Source of the DNA: a bacterium
Lineage (GTDB): Bacteria; Hinthialibacterota; Hinthialibacteria; Hinthialibacterales; Hinthialibacteraceae
Direction of reading: 5' to 3'
Assembly: GCA_963662285.2 (NCBI GenBank)
Contig: CAXXMV010000008.1
Span: 416,001 to 480,000, forward strand
DNA length: 64,000 bases
In this document: one piece after another, positions 27,599-61,011 of the stretch
How the letters are laid out: each line of letters begins with the position of its first letter
Numbering within the stretch: position 1 is the first letter of the stretch
Program-made: the position numbers and the translations under genes
The notes under the pieces: generated by a model
What the model saw: the letters and a program-made list of their open reading frames with translations, nothing else
Told to the model about the DNA's origin: nothing
The model's database searches: none

Positions 27599-30067
27599 AT
27601 GAAGAATAAATCTTTAGTATTGCTCATAATTGGTTTGGTTACCTGTGTATTCGCATGTCCGTCTTGGTGCGGTAGCGAATGGTTAAAAATGAACAGTGGA
27701 ACGAATAAAAACCTTACTGATATTTGGGGCAATTCGGCCAACGATGTCTACGTTGTGGGTTCTTATGGAACCATCCTGCACTACGATGGAAACAATTGGA
27801 GCGCAATGGACAGTGGTACGGAAGAATATCTATCGAGCGTGTGGAGCAGTTCGGCCAACGATGTCTTCGCTGTGTTGGAGACAGGAACCATCCTGCACTA
27901 CGATGGAAGCAATTGGAGCACAATGATCAGTGGAATAGATAAATATCTATCGTGCGTCTGGGGCAGTTCGGCCAACGATGTCTTCGTTGTGGGTTCTTCT
28001 GGAACCATCCTGCACTACGATGGAAACAATTGGACTACAATGAACAGTGGAACGGATGGTTTTATTTTAAACGTGTGGGGCCGTTCCGCCAACGATGTCT
28101 TCGCTGTTGGAGCAGGAATCATCCTGCATTACGATGGAAGCAATTGGAACACAATGGACAGTGGTAATTCTCATATTATTTATGGCGTATGGAGCAGTTC
28201 GGCCAACGATGTCTTTGCTGTTTGCAGAAATGGAGACATCCTGCACTACGATGGAAGCAATTGGAGCACAATGATCATCGGAACAGATGACGATGAATCT
28301 TTATATGGCGTGGGGGGCAGTTCGGCTAACGATGTCTACGCTGTTGGAGATTCAGGAAACATCCTGCACTACGATGGAAGCACGTGGAGCAAAATGAACA
28401 GCAGGACGATTAATTGGTTTGAAGACGTGTGGGCTACTACATCAAAGGTCTTCTGCATAGGCAGCAAAGGAACCATCCTTTACAGACCGCTTCACTGTGA
28501 TCTTGTTCTTAAAGATGCAAATGGAGACCAGTTAAATTTCTATCTAGGGAATTCACAAAACCAAGGTTATTCTTTCTACTATGGAAGTTGGGTATCCAAC
28601 GGCGCCGAATATGATTGCACGTTAGTCTACAATCAATTTGATAAGACAATCACCATAAACGCCGATTATAAAGACAATCAGACCTTCTATTACGCATTGA
28701 AATATGACAGTCCAAGTTTTTTTAATGGGTACTATACGCTTTATAACACCAATAAACCATTCACCGAAACTTATATGCAACTCATTGAAGGGGAATTCGC
28801 TACGACTTCAGCCGCCAAAATATCCCAACGGAACTCAGAACACCCGCAGGTGACTCCACAGCAGGATAATACGCTTAAACTGGGGGCGCTGATTCCCATA
28901 AGCGGCGAGTTGCAATCGCTTGGTGATGCGTTTGCCGCAACCCTGATGCTCGCTCAACAGGATGCGAATACATACCTGAACAATATTGGCAGCGAGTTAA
29001 CCGTCGAATTATTCACCGAAGACAACCAGGCCAACCCCGGCCAGACCTGGCACAGCATCCAGAGCCTGCGCGAACAGGGCGTCGCTGTGTTCCTCGGTCC
29101 GCAGGATAGCCCGTCGCTGGATTACATCAAGCAGTTCGCTGATGAAGAGGATTACCTTCTCCTATCCAGTTCATCAACCGCCGCGGAGATTTCCATCCCC
29201 GATGATAACGTAATGCGCTGCATCAGCGATGATAACTTACAAGCCGCCGCGCTGATCGATAAGATGAAAGCCGACGGCATCGAAGACATCATCATCGTCT
29301 CGCGCACCAATATCTATGGCCACGGGTTTTATCAATCTCTCGAACGGGGATGGATAGCTAATAATGAGACCACCGATCATATCATCGGCGACGTCATTGA
29401 AGACGCCACGGACGTCAACACGGCGGTCACCATATTGTTCAGTCGTCCCGATACTGATATCCCTGATACGCTTGAGTACTTAAAGAATATGCTCAGCGAG
29501 GATGAGTTCTCTGATAAAAGCAAGACAGCCGTGGTGCTGATAGCCTACGACGAAGGCGCCGCGCTTATGGAACAAGCCTCCACAATCGAAGGCCTGGGAG
29601 ACCTGCGCTGGTATGGAACAGATTCCCTCGCTCAGAACAACACTCTAATAAGCAACCCTGCCGCAGCTGAATTCGCGGCAAAAACCAACTTCACCTGCAC
29701 CACCTTCGCCATCCCTGAAAGTGAAGCATATAACGCAGCGCTGGAAAAAGTTACTACCATGTTAGGTCATACGCCGCCAGCCCTGGCTATGATCGCTTAT
29801 GACAGTTACCAACTGGCGGTGCGCGCTTACATCGAAGCGGGGTCAAATGATCCAGCAAGCATGAAAACCGCTTTGCAAAATGTCGCCGAGACTTATGAAG
29901 GCATTACAGGCGATTTGAGTTTCAACGCCAACGGCGACCGGGCCAACGGCGCCTATGAATACTGGACGCTGACCCAGGAAGATGGTCTCTACTATTGGCA
30001 ATCCGATTCCGGCCAAGTCTGGACTGGCGATCCGGTATTAATTCGGGAATGGAGTATTTTTGAATAA
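27599..30067 (+). CDS. Secreted multidomain protein: 7-repeat beta-propeller, linker domain, type I periplasmic binding (LivK-like) domain, WSIFE tail
   Basis: Signal peptide; WGSSANDVFAVG..GTILHYDG repeats; KLGALIPISG ... YEGITGDLSFNANGDR binding-protein signature. Confidence 0.85.
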   Translation: MKNKSLVLLIIGLVTCVFACPSWCGSEWLKMNSGTNKNLTDIWGNSANDVYVVGSYGTILHYDGNNWSAMDSGTEEYLSSVWSSSANDVFAVLETGTILHYDGSNWSTMISGIDKYLSCVWGSSANDVFVVGSSGTILHYDGNNWTTMNSGTDGFILNVWGRSANDVFAVGAGIILHYDGSNWNTMDSGNSHIIYGVWSSSANDVFAVCRNGDILHYDGSNWSTMIIGTDDDESLYGVGGSSANDVYAVGDSGNILHYDGSTWSKMNSRTINWFEDVWATTSKVFCIGSKGTILYRPLHCDLVLKDANGDQLNFYLGNSQNQGYSFYYGSWVSNGAEYDCTLVYNQFDKTITINADYKDNQTFYYALKYDSPSFFNGYYTLYNTNKPFTETYMQLIEGEFATTSAAKISQRNSEHPQVTPQQDNTLKLGALIPISGELQSLGDAFAATLMLAQQDANTYLNNIGSELTVELFTEDNQANPGQTWHSIQSLREQGVAVFLGPQDSPSLDYIKQFADEEDYLLLSSSSTAAEISIPDDNVMRCISDDNLQAAALIDKMKADGIEDIIIVSRTNIYGHGFYQSLERGWIANNETTDHIIGDVIEDATDVNTAVTILFSRPDTDIPDTLEYLKNMLSEDEFSDKSKTAVVLIAYDEGAALMEQASTIEGLGDLRWYGTDSLAQNNTLISNPAAAEFAAKTNFTCTTFAIPESEAYNAALEKVTTMLGHTPPALAMIAYDSYQLAVRAYIEAGSNDPASMKTALQNVAETYEGITGDLSFNANGDRANGAYEYWTLTQEDGLYYWQSDSGQVWTGDPVLIREWSIFE
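27725..28480 (+). repeat. Coding tandem repeat, ~117-bp unit x7 (last copy degenerate)
   Basis: Unit starts at 27725, 27842, 27959, 28076, 28190, 28313, 28430; conserved tcggccaacgatgtc and atcctgcactacgatgga. Confidence 0.9.
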
Positions 30068-30089
30068 CGATAATCCAATATGTAATCTA

Positions 30090-30117
30090 AAAGCCCTGCT
30101 AATTTTAGTAGGGCTTT
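30090..30117. terminator. Bidirectional terminator
   Basis: AAAGCCCTGCTAA-TT-TTAGTAGGGCTTT between convergent genes. Confidence 0.7.
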
Positions 30118-30120
30118 AAT

Positions 30121-31401
30121 TTATTGCAATAAAAATCCCGGTAGGAATAATGAGAAAAATGGGAAAATAGTGACAATCAACAACGCCATTACTTCAGCAA
30201 TTAAAAATGGAATCACAGCGCGGCTCAAGGTTGCAATCTCTATGCGTGAGATGGTAGACGCCACAAATAGGTTCACGCCCACCGGGGGAGTTATCTGACC
30301 TATGGCCATATTAACGGTAAGAATAATGCCGAAATGGATAGGATCAACGCCCACCTGACGCAAAACCGGCATGAAGATGGGCGCGAAAATATAGATAATC
30401 GATACCGCGTCGATAAAGCAGCCCATCACCAACAGAAAACCGTTTATTAAAAGAAGCAGCAAGATTTGATTTTGGCTAATGGTTAAAATCATACGGCTCA
30501 GTTCTTCGGTCAAATGGGTTTGATGAAGCACCCATGAGAAAAGCGAACCTCCCGCAATGATAAAAAGAATCTGCGCCGAACTGCGGCCTGCTTTGACCAA
30601 TAAACCGCTTAAGACTCCCTTTTTGAACAGAGAACGGTAGAAGATAATATCGACTAGAAGAATATATAAAACCGCCGCTCCGGCTGATTCTGTGGGAGTG
30701 AATATCCCTGTGTAGATGCCGCCCAGAATAATCACTGGAGCAATCAGAGCTAGCAGCGTTCCACCGATGACCGACCAGGATATAGGCGCCTTGTTGGAAG
30801 GCGTCAGGTCGCCGCGCGACAAAATCAATACAGCGATGATGAGCGATAAACTGACCAGAATACCCGGTAATACGCCCGCCAGAAACAAACGGCTGATTGA
30901 TGTCTCAGCCACCACGCCATAGATAATCAACGCAATGCTGGGCGGTACGATAATGCCGATGCCGCCGCCCGCCGCCAGCAACGCCGCCGAACGGGGCGCC
31001 GGAAAACCGGACGATGTCAGCAAGGGAAACAACAACACGCCCAACGCCGCAACATCAGCGGGGCCTGAACCTGAGATTCCAGCGAAAAGCAGCGAAACGA
31101 TAACCGCAACCACCGCCGTTCCACCGCGCAGGCCGCCAACCGTAGCGATTACGAAATCCAGCAGACGTTTGGCGAGAGCGCTCTCGCCCAACATGTGCCC
31201 CGCAGTTAAAAACAAGGGGATAGCCAGTAATTTATATGAATCCAGAGCAGAGAAAACCTGCTGGGCGATAATGATCGGGTCTTCCAACCTAAAAGCGAAG
31301 ATTACAGCTATAGCAGAGAGTCCCAGAGAAAACGCCACTGGAACTTCTAGCAACAGTAAAGTAAAAAAAAGTCCAAAAAGAAGCAGAGCAATCCAGATCA
31401 T
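30121..31401 (-). CDS. dctM: TRAP transporter large permease subunit (DctM)
   Basis: LLAIPLF, FAGISGSGPAD, IIVPPSI, GIFTPTE, DPIHFG, GQITPPVGVNLF. Confidence 0.93.
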   Translation of the reverse strand: MIWIALLLFGLFFTLLLLEVPVAFSLGLSAIAVIFAFRLEDPIIIAQQVFSALDSYKLLAIPLFLTAGHMLGESALAKRLLDFVIATVGGLRGGTAVVAVIVSLLFAGISGSGPADVAALGVLLFPLLTSSGFPAPRSAALLAAGGGIGIIVPPSIALIIYGVVAETSISRLFLAGVLPGILVSLSLIIAVLILSRGDLTPSNKAPISWSVIGGTLLALIAPVIILGGIYTGIFTPTESAGAAVLYILLVDIIFYRSLFKKGVLSGLLVKAGRSSAQILFIIAGGSLFSWVLHQTHLTEELSRMILTISQNQILLLLLINGFLLVMGCFIDAVSIIYIFAPIFMPVLRQVGVDPIHFGIILTVNMAIGQITPPVGVNLFVASTISRIEIATLSRAVIPFLIAEVMALLIVTIFPFFSLFLPGFLLQ

Positions 31402-31614
31402 AATTATCTCAAAACGTTTATAGAGTGAACATAAAATCTAGCCGGATTAAAGTATCTACTGTAGTCCGGCGCGATAATATTTCATAAATAATAAACCAAC
31501 AATCATTACAAAACCGCTCCAAAGGGAGAAATATGGAAGAACATGCGCTATGCTTGTACATTAAAATACATTATGAGATGAATCATTCTATACCCGCCGC
31601 ATAGGAAACAGTGA

Positions 31615-32355
31615 ATGAACGGTTATACAATATTCGCCTTAGCTTTCGCTCCGGGAGCGTTCTGGCTGTGGTATTTTTATAAAAAAGACAAACTGGAACC
31701 GGAGCCGAAATCGCTGATCCTGCGAGTATTCGCGCTAGGTATGCTGGCGGTGATCCCGGCGTTTTTTGCTGAACAGGCGGCGGATTGCTTTTTGTCGCTG
31801 TTCTCGCCGGTTTTGATCCTGATAGCCGGCGCCCCGGTAATTGAGGAGTTGGCCAAATTTCTGGTAGTGCGTTTTACCATTTTCAGAAACAAAGAGTTCA
31901 ACGAACCGATGGATGGAATAGTCTATGCGGCTGCGGTCGCTTTGGGATTCGCTTCGCTGGAGAATTTTGGATACATCAGCACCGCATATATGAACATGCT
32001 ATCTATACCAACAGCCCATGCTACATCGCATGAGGTATGGGGGATATCATTCACCCGCGCAATCTTTTCCGTTCCCGGACATGTATTGTTTTCAGTGATG
32101 TGGGGGTACGCCTTGGGCGCCGCCAAGTTTATGCATGATCAAGCCTATGGCAGAAGATTGGTAGTGCATGGATTGATATTATCAATGGTTCTACATGGCG
32201 TCTTTAATTCGGTATTAAATTCCCCCTTGGCGCTGGGCTTGCTTTTGCTTTTTATGTTTGCCGCTTGGCGCATGGTGCGCAAACGCATCACCACAGCGTT
32301 AATGAATTCACCCTTCTCTAAACAGGTTGCCGCCGAACGTGAATTTGATGAATAA
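31615..32355 (+). CDS. prsW: PrsW-family intramembrane glutamic/metalloprotease
   Basis: DKLEPEP, IEELAK, DGIVY...LGFASLEN, R...VPGH, HGVFN motifs. Confidence 0.9.
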   Translation: MNGYTIFALAFAPGAFWLWYFYKKDKLEPEPKSLILRVFALGMLAVIPAFFAEQAADCFLSLFSPVLILIAGAPVIEELAKFLVVRFTIFRNKEFNEPMDGIVYAAAVALGFASLENFGYISTAYMNMLSIPTAHATSHEVWGISFTRAIFSVPGHVLFSVMWGYALGAAKFMHDQAYGRRLVVHGLILSMVLHGVFNSVLNSPLALGLLLLFMFAAWRMVRKRITTALMNSPFSKQVAAEREFDE

Positions 32356-32365
32356 CCACCTACGC

Positions 32366-32395
32366 GTAGGGTGGGTCGCGCCTCATCGACCCACC
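32366..32395. repeat. GTAG-type REP palindrome
   Basis: GTAG then GGTGGGTCG..CGACCCACC 9-bp stem, between convergent genes. Confidence 0.65.
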
Positions 32396-32451
32396 GAAAA
32401 ACCACCACCGATAACAAACCACTCCCCACTAAACACTTGCAACCAAACCGC

Positions 32452-33498
32452 CTACTTCGCCAGATAATTCCCAAAGCCTACGATAATGGTAGACAAGATC
32501 AACACGCCTATTCCAGTCCAGACCAGCGCATGGGTCTTCTTGCCGACGCCTTTCCATTCGCGGAATATCCATCCCCAAATATTTGAGAAAATAATGATAA
32601 AGGCCATGTGGATCGTCCAGCTGGAGAAATCATATTTCCCCATCTGGGTAGTTCCCATGCCGTAAAACATAAACTGCAAATACCAGGTTATTCCGGCTAA
32701 CGCGGAAAAAATGTAATTCAACAGCATGGGCGTTTCAACGGTTTTGATATAATCGCACCAGGAGTTATTCTTGAAATTAAGATACAAGCACCAGATAAAA
32801 TTTGTAGTGAATCCGCCAGCTAGGATAATGATGAAAACCGGAGTGTTCTGCCATAAATCCGGAGTCCCCATTTGAACAGCCAGTTCTGCAATCGGTTTGC
32901 CGGTATTGATGCCGAACGACATGCAGGCGCTCATCACGCCTGCGAATAACGCCACCCACACGCCTTTCCAGAAATTGAATTCACGGATAGTTTGTTGTTT
33001 TTCCTCAGATGGAATCTCTTTCTCTTTACGGATGCCAGCCGCCCCGCAAAACGAGATGCCGATCATACAAGCGGCGACGCCGGACAATACTACAATCCCT
33101 GAAAGGCTGCCAATCAGCTCGCCAAACTGGTTCTGAAATAATGGAGGAATTATAGTGCCAAATGCCGCGCAGAATCCCAAGGCCAACGCATAGCCCAGCG
33201 ACATGCCCAGATAACGCATGGAAAGGCCGAAAGTCAATCCGCCGACGCCCCATAAGACGCCGAAGAAATAACTCCATAATACAGCATTCCCCGGCGATGA
33301 AGATAGCACTTCCAATAAGTTGGGAACGGTTAACAGAGCGACAATCCAGGGAGTGATAAGCCAACTGAATACGCCGCCGATCAGCCAATAACTTTCCCAT
33401 GACCAATTGCGGACTTTTTTGAATGGAATATAAAAACTGGCGGCGGCCAATCCGCCAATAGCATGAAGACATACGCCAAGAAATGGATTAATATCCAT
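32452..33498 (-). CDS. rhaT: L-rhamnose/proton symporter
   Basis: ASFYIPFKKVRNWSWESYW, GLTFGLSMRYLG, WYLQFMFYGMG, SWTIHM, EWKG. Confidence 0.93.
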   Translation of the reverse strand: MDINPFLGVCLHAIGGLAAASFYIPFKKVRNWSWESYWLIGGVFSWLITPWIVALLTVPNLLEVLSSSPGNAVLWSYFFGVLWGVGGLTFGLSMRYLGMSLGYALALGFCAAFGTIIPPLFQNQFGELIGSLSGIVVLSGVAACMIGISFCGAAGIRKEKEIPSEEKQQTIREFNFWKGVWVALFAGVMSACMSFGINTGKPIAELAVQMGTPDLWQNTPVFIIILAGGFTTNFIWCLYLNFKNNSWCDYIKTVETPMLLNYIFSALAGITWYLQFMFYGMGTTQMGKYDFSSWTIHMAFIIIFSNIWGWIFREWKGVGKKTHALVWTGIGVLILSTIIVGFGNYLAK

Positions 33499-33627
33499 TG
33501 GTTCCCCCAATTATGAGATGATTTAAAATATTATATTGGATCATAGATAATATATGAACGCAAGAGTAGAGCATCATCTTTCTTATGCAATATTATCCTT
33601 TTGACGCTATAACCTTCGACCTTACAT

Positions 33628-33664
33628 CCCCTCTCCCATCGGGAGAGATAAAGGGTAGGGGGGT
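33628..33664. repeat. REP-like palindrome, C-rich/G-rich family, copy 4
   Basis: cccctctcccatcgggagagataaagggtaggggggt. Confidence 0.5.
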
Positions 33665-33692
33665 AATCAAATAACACTACCAGTAAACCGCC

Positions 33693-34553
33693 CTACTTAT
33701 TCCAGAAGTACTGAAACAGTAAAAGATCCAACTGGTTCACCGATCCATCTGCGTTAATATCGGCGCTGGATTGCAAACCAGGATCGATGGTCGGTATAGG
33801 GGTTGGCGTCGGCGGAATGGGAGTCGGAGTCGGCGGGCCAACAATTACGGGGGTAAAGGTAGGCGTAGGAGTGGGCGTACCTTCTATCTCATAGACGATA
33901 TCCAGCATGTTAATCACATGCCAGGGCGCATCTTCATCACGACTTGTATTATCATTTGCATCAGAAACCGAAAAAGCCAGAAAATTCTTTTTTAGCGAAT
34001 ATTCAAAAATACTGCGTGATTCTCCCGGAGGAGGAGTAGCGCTTCGGGCGGGAATGCCTAAATTCAGCTTTTGCCCTGTTTCAAAATGATAAAACCGCAT
34101 AATTGTATTATAGGCTTTCTTATCTCCATCGATATCTATTCCCTCATCGGCTTCGTCAAATAAAAAAACCATATATTTTCCATCATCCGGTAAACGCACC
34201 GATCCGGGAATACCATCTTCATTGGTATCGAATAACTTGTTGTTATCGGGTTCCCAGATAAAGAAGCGCTTATTATCATCGAATCCGGTATTATCTGAAA
34301 AGATGATTCTGTCATCAGTAATTGCTTCGAGATGCACATCAACGATACGCTGCACATCAACTTTCAACCGGCTAATAGGGGTTGGAGTTTTACTGATTTT
34401 CACTGTATTGGAAATACCATAAACAGTAGGATATGGAGTAATATTCTGAGCAATGCCTAATACCGGCGAGACGCACAATGCCAGAAAAAACAGGGTGATG
34501 ATAAAGAATGACTTTGCGCATAATAGAAAACAGGAGAAACGATCTCGGAACAC
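33693..34553 (-). CDS. Secreted protein with PT-rich linker and C-terminal dockerin/EF-hand-like motif
   Basis: Signal peptide; TPTPTPT linker; ends SADINADGSVNQLDLLLFQYFWNK; internal DIDGD loop. Confidence 0.78.
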   Translation of the reverse strand: MFRDRFSCFLLCAKSFFIITLFFLALCVSPVLGIAQNITPYPTVYGISNTVKISKTPTPISRLKVDVQRIVDVHLEAITDDRIIFSDNTGFDDNKRFFIWEPDNNKLFDTNEDGIPGSVRLPDDGKYMVFLFDEADEGIDIDGDKKAYNTIMRFYHFETGQKLNLGIPARSATPPPGESRSIFEYSLKKNFLAFSVSDANDNTSRDEDAPWHVINMLDIVYEIEGTPTPTPTFTPVIVGPPTPTPIPPTPTPIPTIDPGLQSSADINADGSVNQLDLLLFQYFWNK

Positions 34554-34766
34554 GATTTGAACCTCTCTAAAAACAAGTTTAGGATTATTGTAGCACTATA
34601 GGAATATATCCCAATTGAAAGAGTTTTGCCCGAAAAAAATGTTTTTATTTCAGAGGGTTCTAGAGTGGTTGTCGTAACAATGTTTTGATTGGCGTATACG
34701 AAGACCAAACTTGATAATAAACGAAATATATTTTCAGAACATATTTTAAACAATCGCTCTATACTA

Positions 34767-35675
34767 TTAATTGATGCTCAGATAATTGATATATTCAGCA
34801 GGGTTTATGTTTTTTGCATTAACCCTTGTTTTATTAGGCGTGAGTTTTTTCGAATTACCAGAATGGTTTTGTTGGTTGAATAAAACCGATTGACTCGAAG
34901 GTAATATAATTCCGGAAAGCGGCATGGCATAGTCACCCTCAATGTTATCAACATCCTCAGATTTATCGATGCTCAGCATTTTATATTTATGAAGGCATAA
35001 AAAAGCATCGGCGTCGCCTTCAATGAAAGAGTAATCATTAAATTGATTCGCTGCATAAGTATGTGAATGCATCACAACTGCGTCAGAAACGTATTGAATC
35101 AGATACCCTTTACGTTTAGCCCAGCATCCCCATTCGAAATCCTCGGCGCCCCATGCATCTATCGAGAATGGTCTTTCCTGCCAGATTGATCTACGTATAG
35201 CAGCGAAAGACATAGAGAATGGAATATAATCCGGAGCAACGCCTTTTTCTGGAAATGCTTTTTGATAACAAGGTCTGATCCAAGATTCAGCATCTATGCG
35301 TGGAACCTGACGTCCAAAAGCGGCCTTAACCGCGGGATTATCGAATGAACCAACAAGGCGTTTTAAGGCATAGGGAGAGACCAACGGAGCATCTGCATTA
35401 AGAAATACGATCATATCACCATTGGTTGTACTGATTGTATTATTTAAGACATGACCTGTACTATAAGTATTTGAATTAACTTTATAGCGTATGCAATTAT
35501 ATTCGCGAACAATATCTCTAGTGCGATCAGTTGAACTGTAGTCAATCACGATCAGTTCATACTTTTCATAAGCCTGCATAAAAAGAGAAGTCAATGTTTC
35601 TCCAATTACATGTTCCGAATTATTAGTCCGGATGATAATCGATACAGGAATATTGTTATTTTTGAGTATAACCAT
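34767..35675 (-). CDS. Glycosyltransferase family 2 (rhamnosyltransferase-like)
   Basis: VSIIIRT-N, VID-SSTD-T, FLNADA, FGRQ-PR, AEDFEW, V-HSH-Y; start may be 35675 or 35723. Confidence 0.85.
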   Translation of the reverse strand: MVILKNNNIPVSIIIRTNNSEHVIGETLTSLFMQAYEKYELIVIDYSSTDRTRDIVREYNCIRYKVNSNTYSTGHVLNNTISTTNGDMIVFLNADAPLVSPYALKRLVGSFDNPAVKAAFGRQVPRIDAESWIRPCYQKAFPEKGVAPDYIPFSMSFAAIRRSIWQERPFSIDAWGAEDFEWGCWAKRKGYLIQYVSDAVVMHSHTYAANQFNDYSFIEGDADAFLCLHKYKMLSIDKSEDVDNIEGDYAMPLSGIILPSSQSVLFNQQNHSGNSKKLTPNKTRVNAKNINPAEYINYLSIN

Positions 35676-40884: not shown

Positions 40885-40894
40885 TTTAATCTCC

Positions 40895-50164: not shown

Positions 50165-50166
50165 AA

Positions 50167-52469: not shown

Positions 52470-53384
52470 ATGAAAAGTTGGAAATTTATCTTATCTCTAG
52501 CATTATGCATTATAGCAGCCCCTGCTTTTTCGATTGAATTGCAGCAGGGAGTCAATGGTTACGAAGGCACAGCAGATACCCATATCGTATCCTGGGATGG
52601 AAATCAGAACCAGTTAATCCGTTTGGCAGATGGATCAAATGGCGGTAATGGCAGCGGTACGGCCACAACCGGCGGCGATCCGCAGAATGCTGGCGGCCAT
52701 AATTTCCTTGAAGAAGGCGACTATGGAGATCCTGCTCCTTTGTATGAAGACAGCAAGTGCATCCTGATCAAGTTTGATCTGACCAACATTTCTGGTAATG
52801 TTTCAAGCGCCAAAATCGGACTGTATTACTGGTATGAACGCAGTACTGGCAGCGACGCTACTGAATTAAGCGGCACCAAAAAAGCAGCTCATGCGCTTTA
52901 TGTAAATCGCATCTTGAAGGATTGGGCTGAAGGCGATACGAATACAGGCGTTGACGGATCAGACGCTCCTGATAACAGCGGTCTTGTATCATGGAACTCA
53001 ACTGGTTATGAACTATGGCAGGCGATGGGTGTTGAAGGCCCGGAAGATATCGCTCCGACCGAAAGCACAACCCAATTTGATCCAGCCGTTGGTGGATGGA
53101 CCTGGTTTGACGTAACTGAAAGCGTAAAGTTCTGGTTAGCGAATCCAGACAAGAACTTTGGAGTAAAGATTGGCCAGGAAGAATATCCTGTGAATGCCAA
53201 AGCGCCGGATCTTACATTACCTGATGGAACTGTAGTTTATTCCGCAGGACCGACGGATACCCCAACTGGTTTCCAAGCTGGCGCTCATGACTTTGTTTCC
53301 AGCGAAAACTCTATGGTCGATTTACGACCGAAGTTAGTTATTGAAGGCGCCTCAAACGCCATCGATTGGGAACTGATGAAATAA
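52470..53384 (+). CDS. Secreted DNRLRE-domain-like protein with DWELMK tail
   Basis: Signal peptide; LQQGVNGYEGTADT, LIKFDL, W-EG, W..FDVT..V..W...N-G, SSEN...RPKLVI. Confidence 0.82.
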   Translation: MKSWKFILSLALCIIAAPAFSIELQQGVNGYEGTADTHIVSWDGNQNQLIRLADGSNGGNGSGTATTGGDPQNAGGHNFLEEGDYGDPAPLYEDSKCILIKFDLTNISGNVSSAKIGLYYWYERSTGSDATELSGTKKAAHALYVNRILKDWAEGDTNTGVDGSDAPDNSGLVSWNSTGYELWQAMGVEGPEDIAPTESTTQFDPAVGGWTWFDVTESVKFWLANPDKNFGVKIGQEEYPVNAKAPDLTLPDGTVVYSAGPTDTPTGFQAGAHDFVSSENSMVDLRPKLVIEGASNAIDWELMK

Positions 53385-53408
53385 GCCATTCTCTTTAATG
53401 TTATAATC

Positions 53409-53444
53409 AAAAAGCCTGGGATGGATATATCCCAGGCTTTTTTT
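53409..53444 (+). terminator. Rho-independent terminator
   Basis: AAAAAGCCTGGGAT..ATCCCAGGCTTTTTTT. Confidence 0.85.
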
Positions 53445-53815: not shown

Positions 53816-55198
53816 ATGAAAAAAGGATTTAAAGTATTCGGGATTCTGGCTTGCATGATACTGCTAGTTGGATCAGGGGCGATGGCGCAAGTAGGCGTCT
53901 TCGAAAACACGGTAACGCTGGATGCCGCAAATGATACTACTGCCGTTCCCGGCAGTATTACATTGGATGGCGGAACGTACACGATCCAGGGTAACGGAGC
54001 AGACATCTGGGGAACAGGCGATGAAGCTTTCTTCGCTTACACAGAACTAGCTGGTTCCAACACCATAACTGCCAAAGTCAAATGGATTCAGGCTAAAGGC
54101 GATGCAGCAGGTGGAAGCGACTGGGCTAAAATAGGCGTCATGGTTCGTGATGCTGCTGAAGATCCTGCATCAGCGCATTATTGGATCGAATTGCGTTGCG
54201 GCGCTGGCGATCCAGCCCTAGGCGACCAAACAGACGCTCAGTGGCGTCCCACAGCCGGATCATCATCCAGCAATGTTGAAGTTTTGCAAACTGATGGTTC
54301 TAAACTTGCTTCTCCTGATGGCGTATGGCTTCGCGTAACCCGTAATGCAGCAACCAACGAGATGACATCCGAATTTTCGATGGATGGAAAGAATTGGAAT
54401 TTTGGCGACACTCAGACAATTGAAATGAGTGAAACAGCAGCCTATGGTTTGATCATTACATCTCACACCAATGATGATCAGATCGTTATCGCTGAAGCCA
54501 GTGATGTTGCTATCACACAAAGCAATGTAGGCGTCTTCGATCATACCGTAACACTGGATGCCGAAAATAGTACTACTGCCGAAATTGGCAGTATCTCATT
54601 GATTGGCGACACATACACAATCCAGGGTAACGGAGCAGACATCTGGGGCACAGGCGATGAAGCGTTCTTCGCTTACACTGAACTGGCTGGCTCCAACACT
54701 ATCAGCGCTAAAGTCAAATGGATTCAGACTAAAGGCGATGCAGCCGGTGGAAGCGACTGGGCTAAGATTGGCGTTATGGTCCGTGATACTGCAACAGATC
54801 CTGGCTCAACACATTATTGGATCGAAATGCGCGGCGGCGCCGGCGATCCAGCTACTGGCGACCAGACAGATGCTCAGTGGCGTGATGTAGCTGACGCCGA
54901 TTCCGGTAATGTTGAAATATTACAAGCCGACGGTTCTAAACTTGCTGCGGCTGATGGCGTATGGCTTCGCGTAACCCGTAATGCAGAAAACAACGAACTC
55001 ACTTCCGAATATTCCATGGATGGAGCAGATTGGATTTTTGCTAACTCCAGAACTATCGAAATGAGTGAAACAGTTGCGTATGGTTTGATCATTACCTCTC
55101 ACACCAATGATGATCAGATCGTTATTGCTGAAGCTACTGATGTTTCTTTAGAAGAAGCTGTTATTTCTTCAACGGATAACTGGGAACTGTTCCGGTAA
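53816..55198 (+). CDS. Secreted protein with two tandem ConA/DUF1349-like beta-sandwich domains and NWELFR tail
   Basis: Signal peptide; two copies of G-GADIWGTGDE..FAY, WAKIGVMVR, WLRVTR, YGL-ITSH. Confidence 0.85.
   Translation: MKKGFKVFGILACMILLVGSGAMAQVGVFENTVTLDAANDTTAVPGSITLDGGTYTIQGNGADIWGTGDEAFFAYTELAGSNTITAKVKWIQAKGDAAGGSDWAKIGVMVRDAAEDPASAHYWIELRCGAGDPALGDQTDAQWRPTAGSSSSNVEVLQTDGSKLASPDGVWLRVTRNAATNEMTSEFSMDGKNWNFGDTQTIEMSETAAYGLIITSHTNDDQIVIAEASDVAITQSNVGVFDHTVTLDAENSTTAEIGSISLIGDTYTIQGNGADIWGTGDEAFFAYTELAGSNTISAKVKWIQTKGDAAGGSDWAKIGVMVRDTATDPGSTHYWIEMRGGAGDPATGDQTDAQWRDVADADSGNVEILQADGSKLAAADGVWLRVTRNAENNELTSEYSMDGADWIFANSRTIEMSETVAYGLIITSHTNDDQIVIAEATDVSLEEAVISSTDNWELFR
53891..55144 (+). 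repeat. Intragenic tandem duplication, 636-bp period
   Basis: gtaggcgtcttcga at 53891 and 54527; long near-identical stretches thereafter. Confidence 0.9.
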
Positions 55199-55232
55199 TC
55201 TAAGCAATAGCGTATTTCTTAATAGCATCACC

Positions 55233-55262
55233 ACGGCCCGGATTCTTCCGGGCCGTTTTTTT
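55233..55262 (+). terminator. Rho-independent terminator
   Basis: ACGGCCCGGA-TTCT-TCCGGGCCGT-TTTTTT. Confidence 0.85.
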
Positions 55263-55316
55263 ATTTTGGATAGATGTTTTTGAGAGTATTTAGGACACTT
55301 AGGTCTTTGATTTTTT

Positions 55317-55350
55317 CCCCTCACCCTAGCCCTCTCCCGGCGGGCTGATC
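55317..55350. repeat. REP-like element, C-rich/G-rich family, copy 5
   Basis: cccctcaccctagccctctcccggcgggctgatc; shares the gggctgatc end with the 21263 copy. Confidence 0.55.
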
Positions 55351-55399
55351 CCCGTACACAAATCAAAAGAGGAAAATGAAACGGGGAGCATAATAGAAT

Positions 55400-55724
55400 G
55401 GGGAGCATCGGCTTCTAGCCGGTGCGTCAAATAGAATAGAATGAGCCCCATTACGCATAATCATTTCCATGGAAATAGGGGGATGAAAAATGAATAACCG
55501 ATTTGTGTTGTGAAGCCGGATCACGTGCACATACTCCTTACGCTATTAGAAATTCCAAACCTTGGATATCATTCGATCACAACAATACTTCATAGCATTA
55601 AAAGTAATTCATCAATAAAAGCAAACTGGTTAGGAAGGGATTGGTTGAAATTGTGGAAAAGTTTCCTTTTTTGTGTGAAGAGAACCGACGGGATTGGCGT
55701 ACCGGCTAGAAGCCGATGCTCCCC
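55400..55724 (+). mobile_element. Decayed REP-associated tyrosine transposase (RAYT/IS200-like) remnant inside 31-bp inverted repeats
   Basis: IRs 55400..55430 and 55694..55724 (2 mismatches); internal frame VVKPDHVHILL...ILHSIKSNS matches the HUH motif region of Y1 transposases. Confidence 0.75.
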
Positions 55725-55879
55725 TGTTTGATGCTCTCTGGTTATTGATAGAGTGTTTTTTCAGTTTATCAGAGGTAGGTGTATTGCCACTGCTTCAATT
55801 TCACAACAATATGTACGGAGAGTAGCCCTCCGAGAGAGAGGACTTGATTATCCAATGTTATTTATTGGACATATTAGGA

Positions 55880-58800
55880 TCATCTGGTTTCGCGGATGAC
55901 GCGGAAGCCTACATTATATACCGGCAGGAATTTATGGTAATAGACTTTATGATTTGAACTGGCAAATTTGGGACGGTCATACCATGAGCCGCCTTTGACA
56001 ACTTTTCTGTCATTCATTTCATTAGCCGTTGAGCTTGTCCATTCCGCCGCATTGCCATGCATATCATAGAGTCCCCAGGGATTGGGCTGATATGTTCCAA
56101 CTGGAGCAGATACGCGATATTGATCGTTATAGGAGCTTATGGCAGGTCTCCATGTGGGGATAGCGCCTGAGGGCAACCCCCAGCCGAAGGTATCTACTTT
56201 ATGGAATGATGCATCAGCTAGATTGGCGTATTTGGAGAAATCCACTGTATGACCGCCATACCACATGGCGGAGTCCGATCCCGCACGGCATGCATATTCC
56301 CACTGGGCTTCATCGGGTAGAGTGAAATGCTCGCCCGTTTTTTCCGACAACCAGCGGCAAAAAGCCATAGCATCATTCCATGATACGCGCACTACCGGCT
56401 GACGAGTGGTGTTGAGAGGATAGCCGCGCTCCTCAATGCTGAATTGTAAAAAGTCTCCATGTTCCAAGCGGCTGTCATGGGATGGATCGAACAACTGATA
56501 TTGCTGGTTGGTTATTTCATAAGCGCTTATCCAGTAGGGATCATTAATTCTCACGGTTGGTTTATCAGACGCCGATGCAAATTCACCTGAGGGAATCAGC
56601 ATCATCGGCATATCAATACCTTCACCCAGATCAATAGCGTCCTGATAATCGCCTAGTGAAGCCTGACGCGCCCTGGCTTGTTGCTGGTTGAATGACCAAG
56701 CATTAGTAGACTGCTTTATTGCAGGAATTCCTCTGGGATGCGGCGGCGTTGAATTATCCATTATCAGCGCAGGTTGGTTAATTTCTTCAGGGTCTTCGTC
56801 AATATTGGCGTATTGCTTTAACATGGCCAGCCGACGGTCGCGCTGATGAAACACATTCTGGTCGCCTACGATTTCCCGCCATGTTCCATGAGCTGGAGTG
56901 TTCAAGTCGATCCAGGTAATCAAACGATCCCAGGCTTCTGCGCTTAAATCGACGTCATGATGACCTTGGCTTAACATCTGAACCAATTGAGTGCTGTCCG
57001 CATGAAACTCTCCGGGAGGCAATAAATGTAGATCGCTCTCAATGGTCGGCGCACGAACATAGCGCCGTAATGCTATGTAAGACGGAGGGAATTTTGTTCC
57101 ATTATTGTAGGTAGCATTACCCCCTTTAGGGTGAACCGATGGGAGAGAGCGAAAATCAGGCGTCTCCATTTCCGGAAGCGAGGTTCCATCATGGCATCTA
57201 ATGCAATATTTATCCAAAACAGGCTGAACCTCTCTGATAAAGGAGAAACCGCGGGTGGGGCCGTACCAAGGCTGTATCTGTGAAGGCTGGCGCTGAAGAG
57301 CCAGGGCTGACATAACTGGAGGAGCGGTGTTTTGTTGTTCATGGCAACCGACGCAGGTCAGAATTTCTCCCGGCATGGCGGTCATCCAGCTGCGCATCAG
57401 TTGCAAGGCTTTGCCTTCTTCATCCAAAGGTTGCAGTGAAATAGGCGTATTGGCGGGGACCGAAAAATAGGCCGAGCCATCCTCTTCCACAGGAACTTCA
57501 CCGATGACTCTTTTTATATCCCAGGGACCATCCAGACCTACGCGGCTTATCTGGCCGCCCATGCCATGATAAGCGAAATGATAGGTGAACAGACGTAGTT
57601 TCTTGACTGTACCTTGCGGGACGCCTTTAAGACCGCCGCCTTTATATATATCTGTAAAATAGACCAGCGCATCCTTACGTTCAGGTTGTACTTTACTTGG
57701 AATAACTGGTGGAGCCGGTATTTTCTTAAACGGGATAGGCTCCAGCAAGGCGTAATCTTCAAGTTCCTTGATCAGCGTCATATTATCAAAGACATCGACC
57801 AGATAAATCCCCCAATTGGCGCCGGGCGATGGTTTACATGAAGTGATAATGTACTTGTCGCTCAGCGGCCAGGGGTGCAGAAATTTTGGCCAGCTTTTTT
57901 TGATAAGATCGTCTTGAATTATCGGCGCCACTTTCACGCCGCGACCGGGAATGCGCTGAATCACGCCATCCGCTTCACGGCGGCCTTTAGCGGGATCGAA
58001 GAGCACCAATTCACCCATGCGCGGTTCGTCGTGATGACCTCCGATTACGGCGACGAATTTGGTTGGATGATTGGGAACCGGCCTGGCGTAGAACATTGAG
58101 TTAGGCCAATAGGAGTTGCTGCCGTAATACTCCATTTGGCTGGTTCCATCAGGATTCATGTGGAAAAGTATGCGCGAGACGAAATGGGGGATGTCAGAAT
58201 ATTCCCAGCGTAAATATAGAATCCGGCCATTATTCAATACAGTCGGACACCAGTCATGATCCTGTTCAAAAGTCAAACGCCTGATATTATTGGTCTGCAA
58301 ATCAAACAGATACATGTTAGATACATGAGCCGATCCCGATACGCATGGCACCCCGATGAATGGCGCGGTTGAGGTGAAGATAATATTTCCGTCAGGTAAG
58401 TAACATGCGTCATAATTATCCACATCGGGCTGCTCTATCAGTGATAATTGCCGGATGTCCCGTCCATCAGCGCTCAATTCAAAAATCTGCCAGCGTCCAT
58501 TGTCGCCCGGCATAGAGAAAAGCATACGGTCCGCATCAAAATCCAGATCGATATCTCCCACGAAGCGGTCTTTTTCCGGCTTGAATAATGTGGTTAGTTG
58601 TCCTGATGGAGATAATGGGGAAAGAAGAACGATTTGATTATGGTAGCCCTGTTGGGGGATGCTGGAATTACTTTCCCAGTTCATGGGTAATCCCAGTTTT
58701 TCGCCGTCCCGCTTAATCATGAGTAATTGCTCGAAATCAATCAACGGATTAGCGAGCAGCGCCTGACGCTGAAATTGGAGGATAGCATCCGCCTGTTGAA

Positions 58801-59068
58801 GTGAGTTAGTTTTCTTTTGCTCAAGAGCCTTTATTATGAATATTCTATTGGATTTATATTCATTCAACTGTTCCAGGTATGATGCGGGATATTGATTGGG
58901 ATAAGTCTCTATAAGGTCTTCAATAGCCAACCGCAGGGATGCGAAATTGATCTGACCGACTTGTGTTATCTTCTCCTGGTATATATCTGCTCCATCACAT
59001 TGATAAGGAAATATCAAGCATGATATCAGCCAGGAACCACTTAACAATAAAAGCGTATATTTTTTCAT
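55880..59068 (-). CDS. Secreted HzsA-like beta-propeller / c-type heme protein fused to an FGE-sulfatase (SUMF1) domain
   Basis: Y-RWEY-D, EEDGSA-F-VPA..QPLD..G-A-Q-MRSW..MPGE..CVGCHE, CIRCH, C-terminal LPDEAQWEYACRAG, PNPWGLYDMHGNAAEW, VGFRV. Confidence 0.88.
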   Translation of the reverse strand: MKKYTLLLLSGSWLISCLIFPYQCDGADIYQEKITQVGQINFASLRLAIEDLIETYPNQYPASYLEQLNEYKSNRIFIIKALEQKKTNSLQQADAILQFQRQALLANPLIDFEQLLMIKRDGEKLGLPMNWESNSSIPQQGYHNQIVLLSPLSPSGQLTTLFKPEKDRFVGDIDLDFDADRMLFSMPGDNGRWQIFELSADGRDIRQLSLIEQPDVDNYDACYLPDGNIIFTSTAPFIGVPCVSGSAHVSNMYLFDLQTNNIRRLTFEQDHDWCPTVLNNGRILYLRWEYSDIPHFVSRILFHMNPDGTSQMEYYGSNSYWPNSMFYARPVPNHPTKFVAVIGGHHDEPRMGELVLFDPAKGRREADGVIQRIPGRGVKVAPIIQDDLIKKSWPKFLHPWPLSDKYIITSCKPSPGANWGIYLVDVFDNMTLIKELEDYALLEPIPFKKIPAPPVIPSKVQPERKDALVYFTDIYKGGGLKGVPQGTVKKLRLFTYHFAYHGMGGQISRVGLDGPWDIKRVIGEVPVEEDGSAYFSVPANTPISLQPLDEEGKALQLMRSWMTAMPGEILTCVGCHEQQNTAPPVMSALALQRQPSQIQPWYGPTRGFSFIREVQPVLDKYCIRCHDGTSLPEMETPDFRSLPSVHPKGGNATYNNGTKFPPSYIALRRYVRAPTIESDLHLLPPGEFHADSTQLVQMLSQGHHDVDLSAEAWDRLITWIDLNTPAHGTWREIVGDQNVFHQRDRRLAMLKQYANIDEDPEEINQPALIMDNSTPPHPRGIPAIKQSTNAWSFNQQQARARQASLGDYQDAIDLGEGIDMPMMLIPSGEFASASDKPTVRINDPYWISAYEITNQQYQLFDPSHDSRLEHGDFLQFSIEERGYPLNTTRQPVVRVSWNDAMAFCRWLSEKTGEHFTLPDEAQWEYACRAGSDSAMWYGGHTVDFSKYANLADASFHKVDTFGWGLPSGAIPTWRPAISSYNDQYRVSAPVGTYQPNPWGLYDMHGNAAEWTSSTANEMNDRKVVKGGSWYDRPKFASSNHKVYYHKFLPVYNVGFRVIRETR

Positions 59069-59192
59069 TTGATGATTTGCATCCAATTTTTAGTTATTTA
59101 CATGAAATCAGTAATTTATTATAGAGGGTATTGAGTATCATTAGAGATAAAGAGAGAGGAAAAGTCAAGCAGACAATTAAGTAATAAAGTAT

Positions 59193-59239
59193 ACAGGCAT
59201 TTCCCCGCCCTGATCCAATTAAGGCGGAGAAATGCCTGT
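59193..59239 (-). terminator. Long hairpin after cysK (terminator or stabiliser)
   Basis: ACAGGCATTTC-CCGCC..GGCGG-GAAATGCCTGT; poly-U tail weak. Confidence 0.55.
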
Positions 59240-59259
59240 TTTAACCAAACAATAATCCG

Positions 59260-60147
59260 CTACAAAAGCGCGGTGCTGAAATAGCGCTCGGCGCGGTCGG
59301 GAAGAACGGTGGTGATATTCCCTTCAATTTTTTTAGCGAGTTGACGTGCAGCCCAGATGTTCGCTCCAGAGGAGATGCCAACCAGAAGACCATAATCGCC
59401 ACTCAATTTTCTGGTTGTATCAATAGCGTCTTCATCGGTCACTTCAATCACATCATCAACTATGGAAACATCCAGTATGGCAGGAATGAAGCCGTCGCCG
59501 ATGCCCTGAATCTGATGAAGTCCCGGCTCGTGTCCCAACAGGGCGGAAACATTTTTTGGTTCGACGGCGACAATCTTAACATCGGGTTTATGTTCTTTTA
59601 GAAATTTGCCGATGCCTTGCAGTGAACCGCCGCTGCCGACTCCAGCTACGAAACAGGATATATCGCCAGTCATCTGGCGCCACAATTCATGAGCGGTTTC
59701 TTCGTAATGAACCTTTGGATTATCTGGATTCTCGAACTGCTGGGGAACGAAAACGCGGGGATCTTCCACAGCCATCTGATTAACCAATTCGACAGCGCCG
59801 TTGATGCTTTTTTCAGCGGGAGTCAAGATCAGCTCAGCGCCAAGGATGCGAATCAATTTTTTGCGCTCTTCGCTCATGTTTTCGGGCATAACGATGCGAA
59901 CCGCATATCCCTTGAGACGAGCTACCAGAGCGATTCCAATGCCTGTGTTGCCCGAAGTCGGTTCGGTTATTATTGAGTCGGGTTTCAACAGTCCATCCCG
60001 CTCGGCGCCTTCCAGCATGGCCAAAGCCACCCGGTCTTTGATGCTGCCGCCGGGATTTAGGAATTCGAGTTTGGCGAAAATATTTTCGCCCTTCAACTGA
60101 AAAAGTGGAGTGTTGCCAATCAGATCAAGAATATTATCAGTTATCAT
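59260..60147 (-). CDS. cysK: Cysteine synthase A
   Basis: IGNTPL, KLEFLNPGGSIKDR, EPTSGNTGI, QQFENPDN, HQIQGIG, GISSGAN, PD-AERY-ST. Confidence 0.95.
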   Translation of the reverse strand: MITDNILDLIGNTPLFQLKGENIFAKLEFLNPGGSIKDRVALAMLEGAERDGLLKPDSIITEPTSGNTGIGIALVARLKGYAVRIVMPENMSEERKKLIRILGAELILTPAEKSINGAVELVNQMAVEDPRVFVPQQFENPDNPKVHYEETAHELWRQMTGDISCFVAGVGSGGSLQGIGKFLKEHKPDVKIVAVEPKNVSALLGHEPGLHQIQGIGDGFIPAILDVSIVDDVIEVTDEDAIDTTRKLSGDYGLLVGISSGANIWAARQLAKKIEGNITTVLPDRAERYFSTALL

Positions 60148-60189
60148 TAATACACCTTATACAAATTCTCAAATTTAGACGATTCGTTT

Positions 60190-61011
60190 TTAATACAAAC
60201 TCCAGTGTGAAACATAAGAGGCGTGCACACAATAGTCATCAGTAAGTGTAACCGAGTATACATCAACCTCTGCGCCAATGCGGATTATAAATTCACTCAT
60301 TCCGATGTGGTTATCCGTCTTTCCCCAATCATAGGTATAACCGAGACGGGTCCAGGGGTATCCATTTTCTCCATACATAGATGCTTTTGTATCATTAAAC
60401 CATTGCTTGTGCTCTTCACTCACCCCAGCGGGGAAATCCAGAGTGGCTGCGTTATTAGTTATATCAGGATCGGGAGTAGGTCGAAACAGGTCTTCAGGAC
60501 TTACCCAGAATTCCACAAAACGGGTTTTACCATTATCAGGCGGCAAGCCAAGCAGTTGTTCGAGACGTAAATCCAAATCATTGGCTGGTATTTGGTTTTG
60601 CTGGCAGAACTTTTGTAATTCCGGCACGGCGGTGACCCAAATATCACGCGTGGTTTCGTAGATACCCATAGTTGAGTTACCATTGGCGCCATTGGTTCGC
60701 GCTTGGATATACTGCGTCATGCGGATGGTTTTGCCAACCATACCGTCATAACCATCCCAGGAAGTCCAGGTAGTCATCAGGACTTTTTGATCGCCTGATT
60801 CACTGCTCCAGACAAGATTGTTGTTGTCTTCTGTAATAGAGATCAGATCATAATAGATTTCATCTGCTTCAGCGATTTCTGCATCATTAACCGCCGCCTG
60901 GAAGGCTTGTTGAAGTTCCTCTTCTGAAGCCGCATATAAAAAAGGTGCGACCAATAGAGAAAGACAGGCGAGAAGCAGGAAGATAGCAAAAAAGCGATTG
61001 AATTTTTTCAT
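60190..61011 (-). CDS. Secreted hypothetical protein (YPWTRLGYTYDW family) with HWSLY tail
   Basis: Start re-assigned to ATG 61011 (signal peptide MKKFNRFF..LYA); WVT..PEL, RLEQLLGLPP, DLFRP-PDP, YPWTRLGYTYDW, G-SEF. Confidence 0.8.
   Translation of the reverse strand: MKKFNRFFAIFLLLACLSLLVAPFLYAASEEELQQAFQAAVNDAEIAEADEIYYDLISITEDNNNLVWSSESGDQKVLMTTWTSWDGYDGMVGKTIRMTQYIQARTNGANGNSTMGIYETTRDIWVTAVPELQKFCQQNQIPANDLDLRLEQLLGLPPDNGKTRFVEFWVSPEDLFRPTPDPDITNNAATLDFPAGVSEEHKQWFNDTKASMYGENGYPWTRLGYTYDWGKTDNHIGMSEFIIRIGAEVDVYSVTLTDDYCVHASYVSHWSLY

Follow-up and report, generated by a model that had tools for sequence, protein, structure and literature searches.

A short C-terminal tail shared by unrelated exported proteins of a Hinthialibacterota bacterium: a candidate sorting or anchoring tag without a membrane helix

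Why do four exported proteins with unrelated bodies, encoded within one short stretch of a bacterial genome, end in nearly the same ten or so residues? The question is raised by a 64,000-nucleotide piece of a Hinthialibacterota genome (assembly GCA_963662285.2, contig CAXXMV010000008.1, positions 416,001 to 480,000), called the window below and numbered from its first nucleotide. The first of the four proteins, P1, is encoded on the plus strand at 27599..30067 (counted from the ATG at 27599, with a further in-frame TTG at 27584), has 822 residues with N-terminal repeats and a Peripla_BP_6/ANF_receptor region at residues 430–797, and the translation of its open reading frame (ORF) ends in PVLIREWSIFE (30032..30064, plus strand). 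P2 (52470..53384, plus strand) has 304 residues and a DNRLRE domain of CBM96-like type, and its tail ASNAIDWELMK (53349..53381, plus strand) follows the last strand of that domain (..RPKLVIEG). P3 (53816..55198, plus strand), of 460 residues, carries two DUF1349 (LamG-like) domains, of which the first ends without a tail, while ISSTDNWELFR (55163..55195, plus strand) is appended to the second. P4 is encoded on the minus strand at 60190..61014 (ATG at 61014, with the longest ORF reaching 61107); its 273 residues belong to a widespread family that has no Pfam or NCBIfam model, and its tail ASYVSHWSLY (60193..60222, minus strand) lies within an extension of 11–13 residues past the usual family end ..DYC[KQR]. 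The comparisons described here indicate that this tail is a selected, portable and lineage-restricted C-terminal tag on exported proteins, placed outside the folds of the bodies that bear it; on balance it is probably a short sorting or anchoring tag.

The resemblance had been noticed in a sequence-only reading of the window, and the ORF listing and the translations agree exactly with the four ends given there. By inspection and a crude heuristic, the N-termini of P1–P4 are basic, then hydrophobic, and then show a cleavage-like site of small residues. The bodies are unrelated, as had been claimed: no pair gives a significant blastp match (best E-value 0.011), and the Pfam and NCBIfam content differs, with Peripla_BP_6/ANF_receptor in P1, DNRLRE in P2, two copies of DUF1349 in P3 and no family in P4. 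It had also been stated that no cytoplasmic protein of the window ends in the motif; this holds, and the remaining 39 of the 43 window ORFs are without a match.

The pattern W[SE][LI][FYM].{0,1}$ matches 4 of 43 window ORFs, while the chance of a match is 6.7e-5 per protein at the amino-acid frequencies of the window, giving a probability of 2.5e-12 for at least 4 of 43; this motif was defined post hoc, but the margin is nonetheless very large. The internal four-residue core occurs at chance level, with 1 copy in 18,180 residues of the window, 3 in 103,207 of the lineage and 4 in 251,542 of the controls, so the enrichment is specific to the C-terminus. At the DNA level, 30 tails use six codons for Ser and six for Leu, and no conserved sequence was found past the stop codon across these 30, so it is the peptide that is under selection. 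Coincidence, faulty annotation or an element acting in the DNA at the ends of genes could appeal to nothing but the shortness of the motif. Such an origin has a probability close to nil, since it is opposed by the figure for 4 of 43, by the codon variation and the lack of conservation past the stop, and by the keeping of the tail across dozens of homologues in four families.

When 83 distinct tails were aligned on their Trp, which the collection procedure fixes, the logo showed [ST] at −5, [VA] at −3 and [NDHE] at −1, followed by W, by S, E or sometimes M, by L, and by [YF]. Leu is present in 68 and Tyr or Phe in 71 of the 83 tails, and small or hydrophobic residues recur at −5, −3, 0, +2 and +3. 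The core is followed by no residue in 32 tails and by one in 50, with up to three in the P1 family; where a residue follows (51 tails) it is R in 17, E in 11, K in 10 and H in 4. The tail sits behind a linker rich in Ser, Thr, Gly and Pro. The core of the consensus first proposed is borne out, but that consensus was too narrow, because its second position also accepts M, A, D and Q and up to three residues may follow. As read from the alignment, the core is [ST]-x-[VA]-x-[NDHE]-W-[SEMA]-[LIM]-[YF] with 0–1, rarely up to 3, further residues, in a tail of about 10–13 residues. The motif is short and degenerate, and with about 12 bits it would be too weak to reach significance in a profile search of 1.8 billion proteins.

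The tail is retained among close homologues and absent from distant ones. In the P3 family, the pattern W[SEMDAQ][LIMV][FYMHLW] plus 0–2 residues is found in 21 of the 24 best homologues and in none of 19 more distant ones, which stop at the end of the DUF1349 fold or bear other C-terminal modules. The three misses among the best homologues are P0007, with a truncated C-terminal region, P0015, which ends in ..DYQLYK with Tyr in place of Trp, and P0024, which ends in ..DWSVR. In the P1 family, a [DE]-W-[SMA]-[LIMV]-x tail is present in 12 of 13 close matches and in none of 4 distant ones, and a tailed P1 paralogue, P0321, is encoded on the same 1.64-Mb contig. The P2 family, collected by an exhaustive search of representatives, has the tail in 7 of its 8 best matches, in 20 of 150 representatives by the pattern used for P3 and in 27 of 150 by a broader one. 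For the P4 family, 15 of the 120 matches listed are tailed (2048 matches in all at E ≤ 0.001), and the alignment shows that the usual end ..DYC[KQR] is extended in the tail-bearers by 11–13 residues to W-[SEA]-[LMV]-[YF]-(E/K/R). Altogether the tail follows at least six kinds of last domain, namely DUF1349, CBM9, DNRLRE, Peripla_BP_6, the P4 domain and a PPDK_N-like protein; by this comparison it is a lineage-specific add-on that is transferable between unrelated domains. As side observations on these families, the P3-family proteins P0001–P0024 (loci L001–L023) share a strongly conserved mature N-terminus, Q-[VYI]-G-[IV]-F-[DEQ], directly past the predicted cleavage site, and locus L022 (contig NZ_CBTJ020000066.1, 5.5 kb), which is filed under Candidatus Competibacter denitrificans, encodes a tail-less P3 relative of 33% identity.

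Could the tail simply be the last strand of each domain? Such a strand had been named as a finding that would refute a tag, but the homologues in other phyla, which lack the tail, and structure prediction both speak against it. AlphaFold2 (AF2), run with alignments, modelled the bodies confidently (predicted local distance difference test, pLDDT, above 90, with a model mean of 88.4 for P4 and 79.4 for P2), while in residues 263–273 of P4 the pLDDT is about 59 and falls to 41, without secondary structure, and in residues 295–304 of P2 it falls from about 70 to 43. The tail is thus predicted to be flexible and unpacked on its own fold. A structural strand of each domain is excluded because the models leave the tail unpacked, because six different last domains precede it and because tail-less homologues exist. 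A fold search with the P4 model against the PDB gave no match at E ≤ 0.001.

The distribution of the tail was followed through one scan of a genome collection with the P3-family alignment, which returned 80 loci. Of these, 23 loci in 12 assemblies form a close group, labelled uncultured bacterium or Candidatus Omnitrophota, and the other 57 come from further phyla including Acidobacteriota, Actinomycetota, Planctomycetota and Verrucomicrobiota. With simple home-made ORF calling, the tail pattern was found in 26 of 288 ORFs of the close loci versus 0 of 605 ORFs of the 57 others. Signal-peptide-like N-termini were flagged in 28 of 30 tail ORFs versus 75 of 301 other ORFs (crude heuristic; Fisher p = 9e-14), and the two misses among the tail ORFs are one protein with an obvious signal peptide and one fragment. 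Because the 23 close loci were chosen by homology to P3, these counts are dominated by that family: P3 homologues make up 25 of the 26 tailed ORFs, 25 of the 27 P3-homologous ORFs are tailed, and the sole tailed flanking ORF outside the family encodes a 997-residue PPDK_N-like protein at 3396-6389 of locus L019. Two of the close loci belong to the metagenome-assembled genome (MAG) SURF_12, which has been placed in phylum OLB16, now Candidatus Hinthialibacterota and earlier under Omnitrophota (PMC9324843). One P3 homologue carries the name Candidatus Hinthialibacter sp. in its source. The bearers thus appear to be Hinthialibacterota (OLB16)-like MAGs, often labelled Omnitrophota at NCBI.

The main argument for what the tail may do comes from relatives that lack it. 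Among 105 tail-less matches of the P4 family, 65 are lipoproteins by a relaxed lipobox rule, 14 are fused to LysM, 6 are truncated at the N-terminus and 20 are other, of which at least 2 have an evident lipobox that the rule missed; a possible lipobox is present in only 1 of 15 tailed P4 homologues versus 65 of 105 tail-less ones (Fisher p = 4.7e-5). As a general remark on this family, its members outside the lineage are mostly lipoproteins or LysM fusions. Sorting domains were scanned for with hidden Markov models (HMMs) in 19 proteins of about 190 in the DNRLRE and P3 lists. Ten of 12 DNRLRE homologues chosen by eye as resembling cargo of the type IX secretion system (T9SS) pass the curated cutoff of TIGR04183 (T9SS type A). 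The PEP-CTERM model is passed by P0312, also a DNRLRE homologue, and by P0037, a distant P3 relative; P0041, likewise a distant P3 relative (DUF1349), passes T9SS. In addition, P0330 of the P1 list has a hydrophobic stretch and then RRRR at its end. These families thus appear to be typically anchored or surface-sorted elsewhere, and the tail seems to fill the same slot in the lineage. A sorting or anchoring role is proposed for the tail because relatives carry established anchors or sorting signals in its place.

In the explanation we favour, and consider somewhat probable, Hinthialibacterota (OLB16)-like bacteria use the tail as a short C-terminal tag that sorts or anchors proteins and has no membrane helix, and sister variants of it occur in other bacteria. 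The lineage would have appended the tag to some of its Sec-exported proteins, mostly those of carbohydrate-binding or surface type, where it would do the job done elsewhere by lipid anchors, LysM, T9SS C-terminal domains and PEP-CTERM, directing the proteins to the outer envelope or surface, or holding them there, after Sec export. An envelope receptor might bind the exposed tail as an extended strand or as a peptide in a groove, either through beta-strand addition in the manner of donor-strand docking or by means of a repeat module that binds peptides. At the membrane, covalent processing of the sortase type is unlikely, since no membrane-spanning segment presents the tail to an intramembrane enzyme. 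Of the surface-targeting or docking role first suggested, the shared, non-random element on unrelated signal-peptide proteins has thus stood, and the role itself is indirectly backed by the anchored tail-less relatives; the part that found no support, a particular reader, is treated below.

The same anchored relatives bear on two other explanations. According to one, the tail is a processing or turnover signal, a pro-peptide or degron for a periplasmic protease of the Prc/CtpA type, which would be cut off as the protein matures or serve quality control. The tail is apolar or aromatic at the extreme C-terminus, exposed and flexible, and proteases such as Prc/Tsp and CtpA are active on C-terminal extensions of some 10 residues, those of FtsI and the D1 protein among them. 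However, such proteases are near-universal while the tail is lineage-restricted (it is in none of the 605 control ORFs), a degron on several unrelated families would have no obvious benefit, and the anchors and sorting domains that stand in the place of the tail in tail-less homologues would be left unexplained; we regard a processing signal as unlikely. According to the other, the tail itself would stick to the outer membrane, lipopolysaccharide (LPS) or glycan through its Trp and Tyr or Phe, with no protein receptor. Trp and Tyr tend to sit at membrane interfaces, lipid anchors give way to the tail in the P4 family, and a variant ending ..[RH][HRN]W-x-L-Y-R has basic flanks like those of Trp/Arg-rich membrane-binding peptides. 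Against this, four residues provide little binding energy, the flanks of the window class are acidic or neutral (DNWELFR, IDWELMK, GDEWSLYE) and poorly suited to anionic LPS, and W, L and Y/F are strictly kept in one order, which speaks for a specific binding site, so that direct sticking seems quite improbable.

If the tail is a sorting or anchoring tag, it should be asked whether it is one of those already described. Of the known sorting signals with which it was compared, it lacks the defining features of each. It had been supposed to have neither a transmembrane helix nor a basic tail, and indeed three residues at most follow the core. Likewise, the suspicion that no existing HMM defines it was borne out by Pfam and NCBIfam scans, which were empty on the tails in the whole P1–P4 and gave no family at E ≤ 10 for the 35-residue tails alone; no model in a 2025 copy of Pfam or in NCBIfam release 20 covers the tail. 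No mention of it was found in the searchable literature, where the four-letter cores gave unrelated uses only. Discovery criteria for C-terminal sorting signals have been listed by Haft (10.1101/2023.06.07.544157), and the tail resembles the tripartite signals (LPXTG/sortase, PEP-CTERM/exosortase, GlyGly-CTERM/rhombosortase and MYXO-CTERM/myxosortase) in having several copies per genome (the four proteins and P0321) on unrelated bodies. It is also like them in its position, with the core 0–1 residues from the C-terminus in 82 of 83 tails, in the N-terminal signal peptide on most members (the 28 of 30 given above, by the crude heuristic) and in that the distant homologues P0312 and P0037 have PEP-CTERM in its place. 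Unlike them, the tail has no transmembrane segment after the motif and no Arg/Lys cluster, both of which are defining parts, and there is therefore no way to present it to an intramembrane or membrane-bound sorting enzyme.

The T9SS type A domain (TIGR04183, Por_Secre_tail) is similar in that it is C-terminal on unrelated Sec-exported cargo, is lineage-restricted and occurs in the same DNRLRE and DUF1349 families. It differs in being a folded domain of about 70–100 residues with its own HMM, while the tail has about 10 residues and is predicted to be unstructured; P1–P4 gave no match to TIGR04183 or PF18962, and this test works, because the model does match tail-less homologues. The lipobox and LysM share with the tail the anchoring role in tail-less P4 homologues and are nearly exclusive with it, but they are N-terminal or separate folded modules of different chemistry. 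The beta-signal of outer membrane proteins (OMPs) is likewise short, aromatic and placed at the extreme C-terminus, in exported proteins of diderms, and it is read by BamA and BamD, the latter a tetratricopeptide repeat (TPR) protein. It differs from the tail in that it ends on the aromatic residue and has alternating hydrophobics in the last strand of a barrel, whereas 51 of 83 tails have at least one residue past the aromatic, positions 0, +2 and +3 break the alternation, and the tail sits on soluble domains.

Terminal strands act as tethers in chaperone-usher, type V and WxL pili. In the same way, the tail might be a C-terminal donor strand that completes the beta-sandwich of a scaffold or fibre subunit of cohesin-, pilin- or Ig-like fold and forms a non-covalent tether; this would be a sub-case of the favoured sorting or anchoring tag, and as such a conceivable but rather unlikely one. 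The tail is one strand long and lies behind its Ser/Thr/Gly/Pro-rich linker, and the extra 0–1 residue tolerated inside one family suits strand docking better than recognition of the carboxylate. Its recurrent residues at −5, −3, 0, +2 and +3 recall the WxL-pili consensus [S/T]-x-[G/A]-x-[V/I]-x-F (10.64898/2026.10.17.759780). However, the hydrophobic positions are without clean alternation, and the WxL system is described in the same source as confined to Bacillota and as having an N-terminal donor strand. It has been reported that WxL proteins carry Trp-x-Leu near the C-terminus of surface proteins and act by non-covalent strand complementation (PMC10599100 and 10.64898/2026.10.17.759780). 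The WxL domain differs from the tail in being a whole Ig-like domain with two WxL motifs, reported as Bacillota-only, while the tail is one strand long with one W-x-L; the Pfam scan at E ≤ 0.01 found no WxL family in P1–P4. WxL provides a mechanistic analogy, in which a terminal strand docks into an acceptor fold, and does not imply membership.

Several other candidates were considered and dropped. An Asn/Asp-specific transpeptidase site before the Trp was set aside, as no more than 39 of 83 tails have N or D at position −1, and an Lpp-like linkage of a C-terminal Lys to peptidoglycan was dropped, as the last residue varies. A signal for type I or type VII secretion was rejected, as the cargo has Sec signal peptides. 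P1–P4 gave no Pfam match to dockerin (PF00404, a duplicated Ca-binding repeat). Binding by SurA, which takes Ar-x-Ar motifs, was likewise set aside, as their spacing differs from that of the tail.

In the peroxisomal targeting signal type 1 (PTS1), unrelated cargo proteins share a very short C-terminal peptide that stays uncleaved and is recognised by a soluble repeat-protein receptor, the TPR domain of PEX5. In design this is the nearest analogy to the tail, but it is eukaryotic, serves another compartment and is strictly anchored by its carboxylate, whereas the distance of the tail to the C-terminus varies by 0–1 and up to 3 residues. Even within single families the register shifts by one residue, as in WSLY, WSLYE and WALYR of the P4 family, so that strict carboxylate-anchored recognition of the PDZ, tail-specific-protease or PTS1 kind seems less likely and docking as a strand or in a groove is easier to accept. 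One might nonetheless suppose that the tail is a linear, receptor-read export or docking signal of PTS1-like design, by which an outer-envelope machine picks folded periplasmic proteins by their free C-terminal peptide; this bolder proposal is a speculative one with a low probability. This dedicated machine would be either secretin-based, with TPR readers as part of it, or a fibre or scaffold taking the tail as a donor strand, and the ..RxW-x-L-Y-R and ..[RK]F[MY]LY variants would mark the same system in other uncultured lineages. If true, this would be a new class of diderm protein sorting and possibly the first linear signal for the secretin pathway.

A candidate reader of that kind had been proposed within the window itself. 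An unusual, pilus- or secretion-like cluster lies at 797-16905 (minus strand), with genes for a pseudopilin (797-1453), FliG (1780-2802), a secretin with N-terminal TPRs (4422-7595), a transmembrane-anchored TPR protein (7866-9431), a PilM-PilN fusion with a GYGM-rich end (9515-11596; its Amuc_1101_fam score of 238 bits does not reach the cutoff of 650), two paralogous cohesin-domain proteins with low-complexity regions rich in G, Y, Q, S and R (11705-13567 and 14061-15653) and a sigma-54 activator (15898-16905). The claim that the locus at 4.4–15.7 kb reads the tail found no support, as nothing seen here links the two beyond the common 64-kb window. As a further sub-case of the favoured tag, the tail would be a targeting signal for this secretin/TPR/PilMN/cohesin machine, with a TPR module, at the N-terminus of the secretin or in the inner-membrane TPR protein, binding the tail and the cargo passing the secretin. 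The existence of so unusual a locus speaks for it, and TPR modules bind C-terminal peptides in PEX5/PTS1 and Hop/EEVD, as BamD binds the OMP beta-signal; the lineage is also rich in pseudopilin-like genes, with 7 in 288 lineage ORFs versus 1 in 605 ORFs of the other-phyla loci. Against it, the nearest tail gene is 12 kb off with unrelated housekeeping genes between, and no secretin, TPR or cohesin homologue lies beside the tail genes in the 23 related loci. A complex prediction with the last 35 residues of P3, the secretin TPR region (residues 45–345) and the transmembrane-anchored TPR protein (residues 45–445) returned a score of 0.00, without controls, and speaks neither for nor against. We accordingly give this reader only a slight chance.

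Pseudopilin-like genes (GFTLIELLIVVAIIGILAAIAVP..) are present in L002, L005, L010, L020, L021 and L023 and at 797-1453 of the window, several of them within two genes of a tailed gene. They are the only recurrent neighbour of note of the tail genes, with 8 copies in 7 loci including the window; given their abundance in the lineage, this proximity is not clearly in excess of expectation. A signal-peptide protein at 33693-34553 of the window (minus strand), with a single weak dockerin-like repeat at its C-terminus and the end ..LLLFQYFWNK, is a possible partner of the cohesin-domain proteins.

Several points weigh against the sorting or anchoring tag. The signal peptides were judged by inspection and a simple home-made heuristic, and about 17 of the 39 motif-free window ORFs were flagged as signal-peptide-like, which fits a tag that sorts a subset of exported proteins but would also fit a functional peptide specific to certain families. 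P1 resembles periplasmic-binding proteins, which normally reside in the periplasm. The lineage assignment draws on the labels of homologues and on the statement about SURF_12 in PMC9324843. Among the ORFs of the 23 close loci that are non-homologous to P3, just 1 of 261 is tailed; the tail may be confined to few families, unlike a general sorting signal, and the window, with 4 of 43, is unusually dense in tails. The sorting or anchoring role is, moreover, itself drawn by analogy.

What a tag of this kind would mean can be seen from the history of the field, in which one new envelope machine after another (sortase, exosortase, rhombosortase, the T9SS and myxosortase) was reached by way of C-terminal sorting signals. 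To our knowledge, the known bacterial C-terminal sorting signals are all either tripartite, with a motif, a membrane helix and a basic tail, or a folded domain. With its length of about 10 residues and no membrane helix, the present tag fits neither design, and its reader should therefore be of another kind. The tag would mark carbohydrate-binding proteins of surface type in a candidate phylum that degrades polysaccharides (Hinthialibacterota/OLB16), and its motif would provide a handle for phylogenetic profiling, which should name the reader. It would also sharpen localisation calls for these uncultured bacteria, and so short and portable a tag could serve surface display.

The variants assumed above were seen among the DNRLRE representatives. 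An ending ..[RH][HRN]-W-x-L-[YF]-R makes up much of the 25 of 150 representatives that match W.[LIMV][YFMHLW].{0,2}$, and a second, Phe-based ending, ..AVPV[ED]V[ST][RK]-F-[MYI]-L-[YW], is found in 6 of 150 (P0171–P0173, P0177, P0181 and P0213), in proteins of 322–1918 residues. Both follow the same type of linker as the Trp tail. This suggests a wider class of tails of the form aromatic-x-Leu-aromatic. An ESM Atlas search with one protein of the variant class, P0222, gave no usable match. Other ends also recur in the DNRLRE representatives P0164–P0312, including x-L-P-[LIV]-[LIV]-x close to the C-terminus (9), a Cys-rich C..GC..C (9) and ..RFYR.. (4), beside T9SS-like ends (11) and ends with a transmembrane segment plus basic residues (3), and the family may be a good source of further undescribed sorting signals.

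Two further features of the window lie apart from the tail. In a 1068-residue signal-peptide protein at 55880-59086 (minus strand), which lacks the tail, a hydrazine-synthase-alpha middle domain (PF18582, 113 bits) is joined to an FGE-sulfatase domain at the C-terminus. At 62768-63592 (plus strand), a SocA/Panacea antitoxin-domain protein of 186 residues is followed 6 bp later by an 85-residue ORF without a family, and the two may form a toxin-antitoxin pair.

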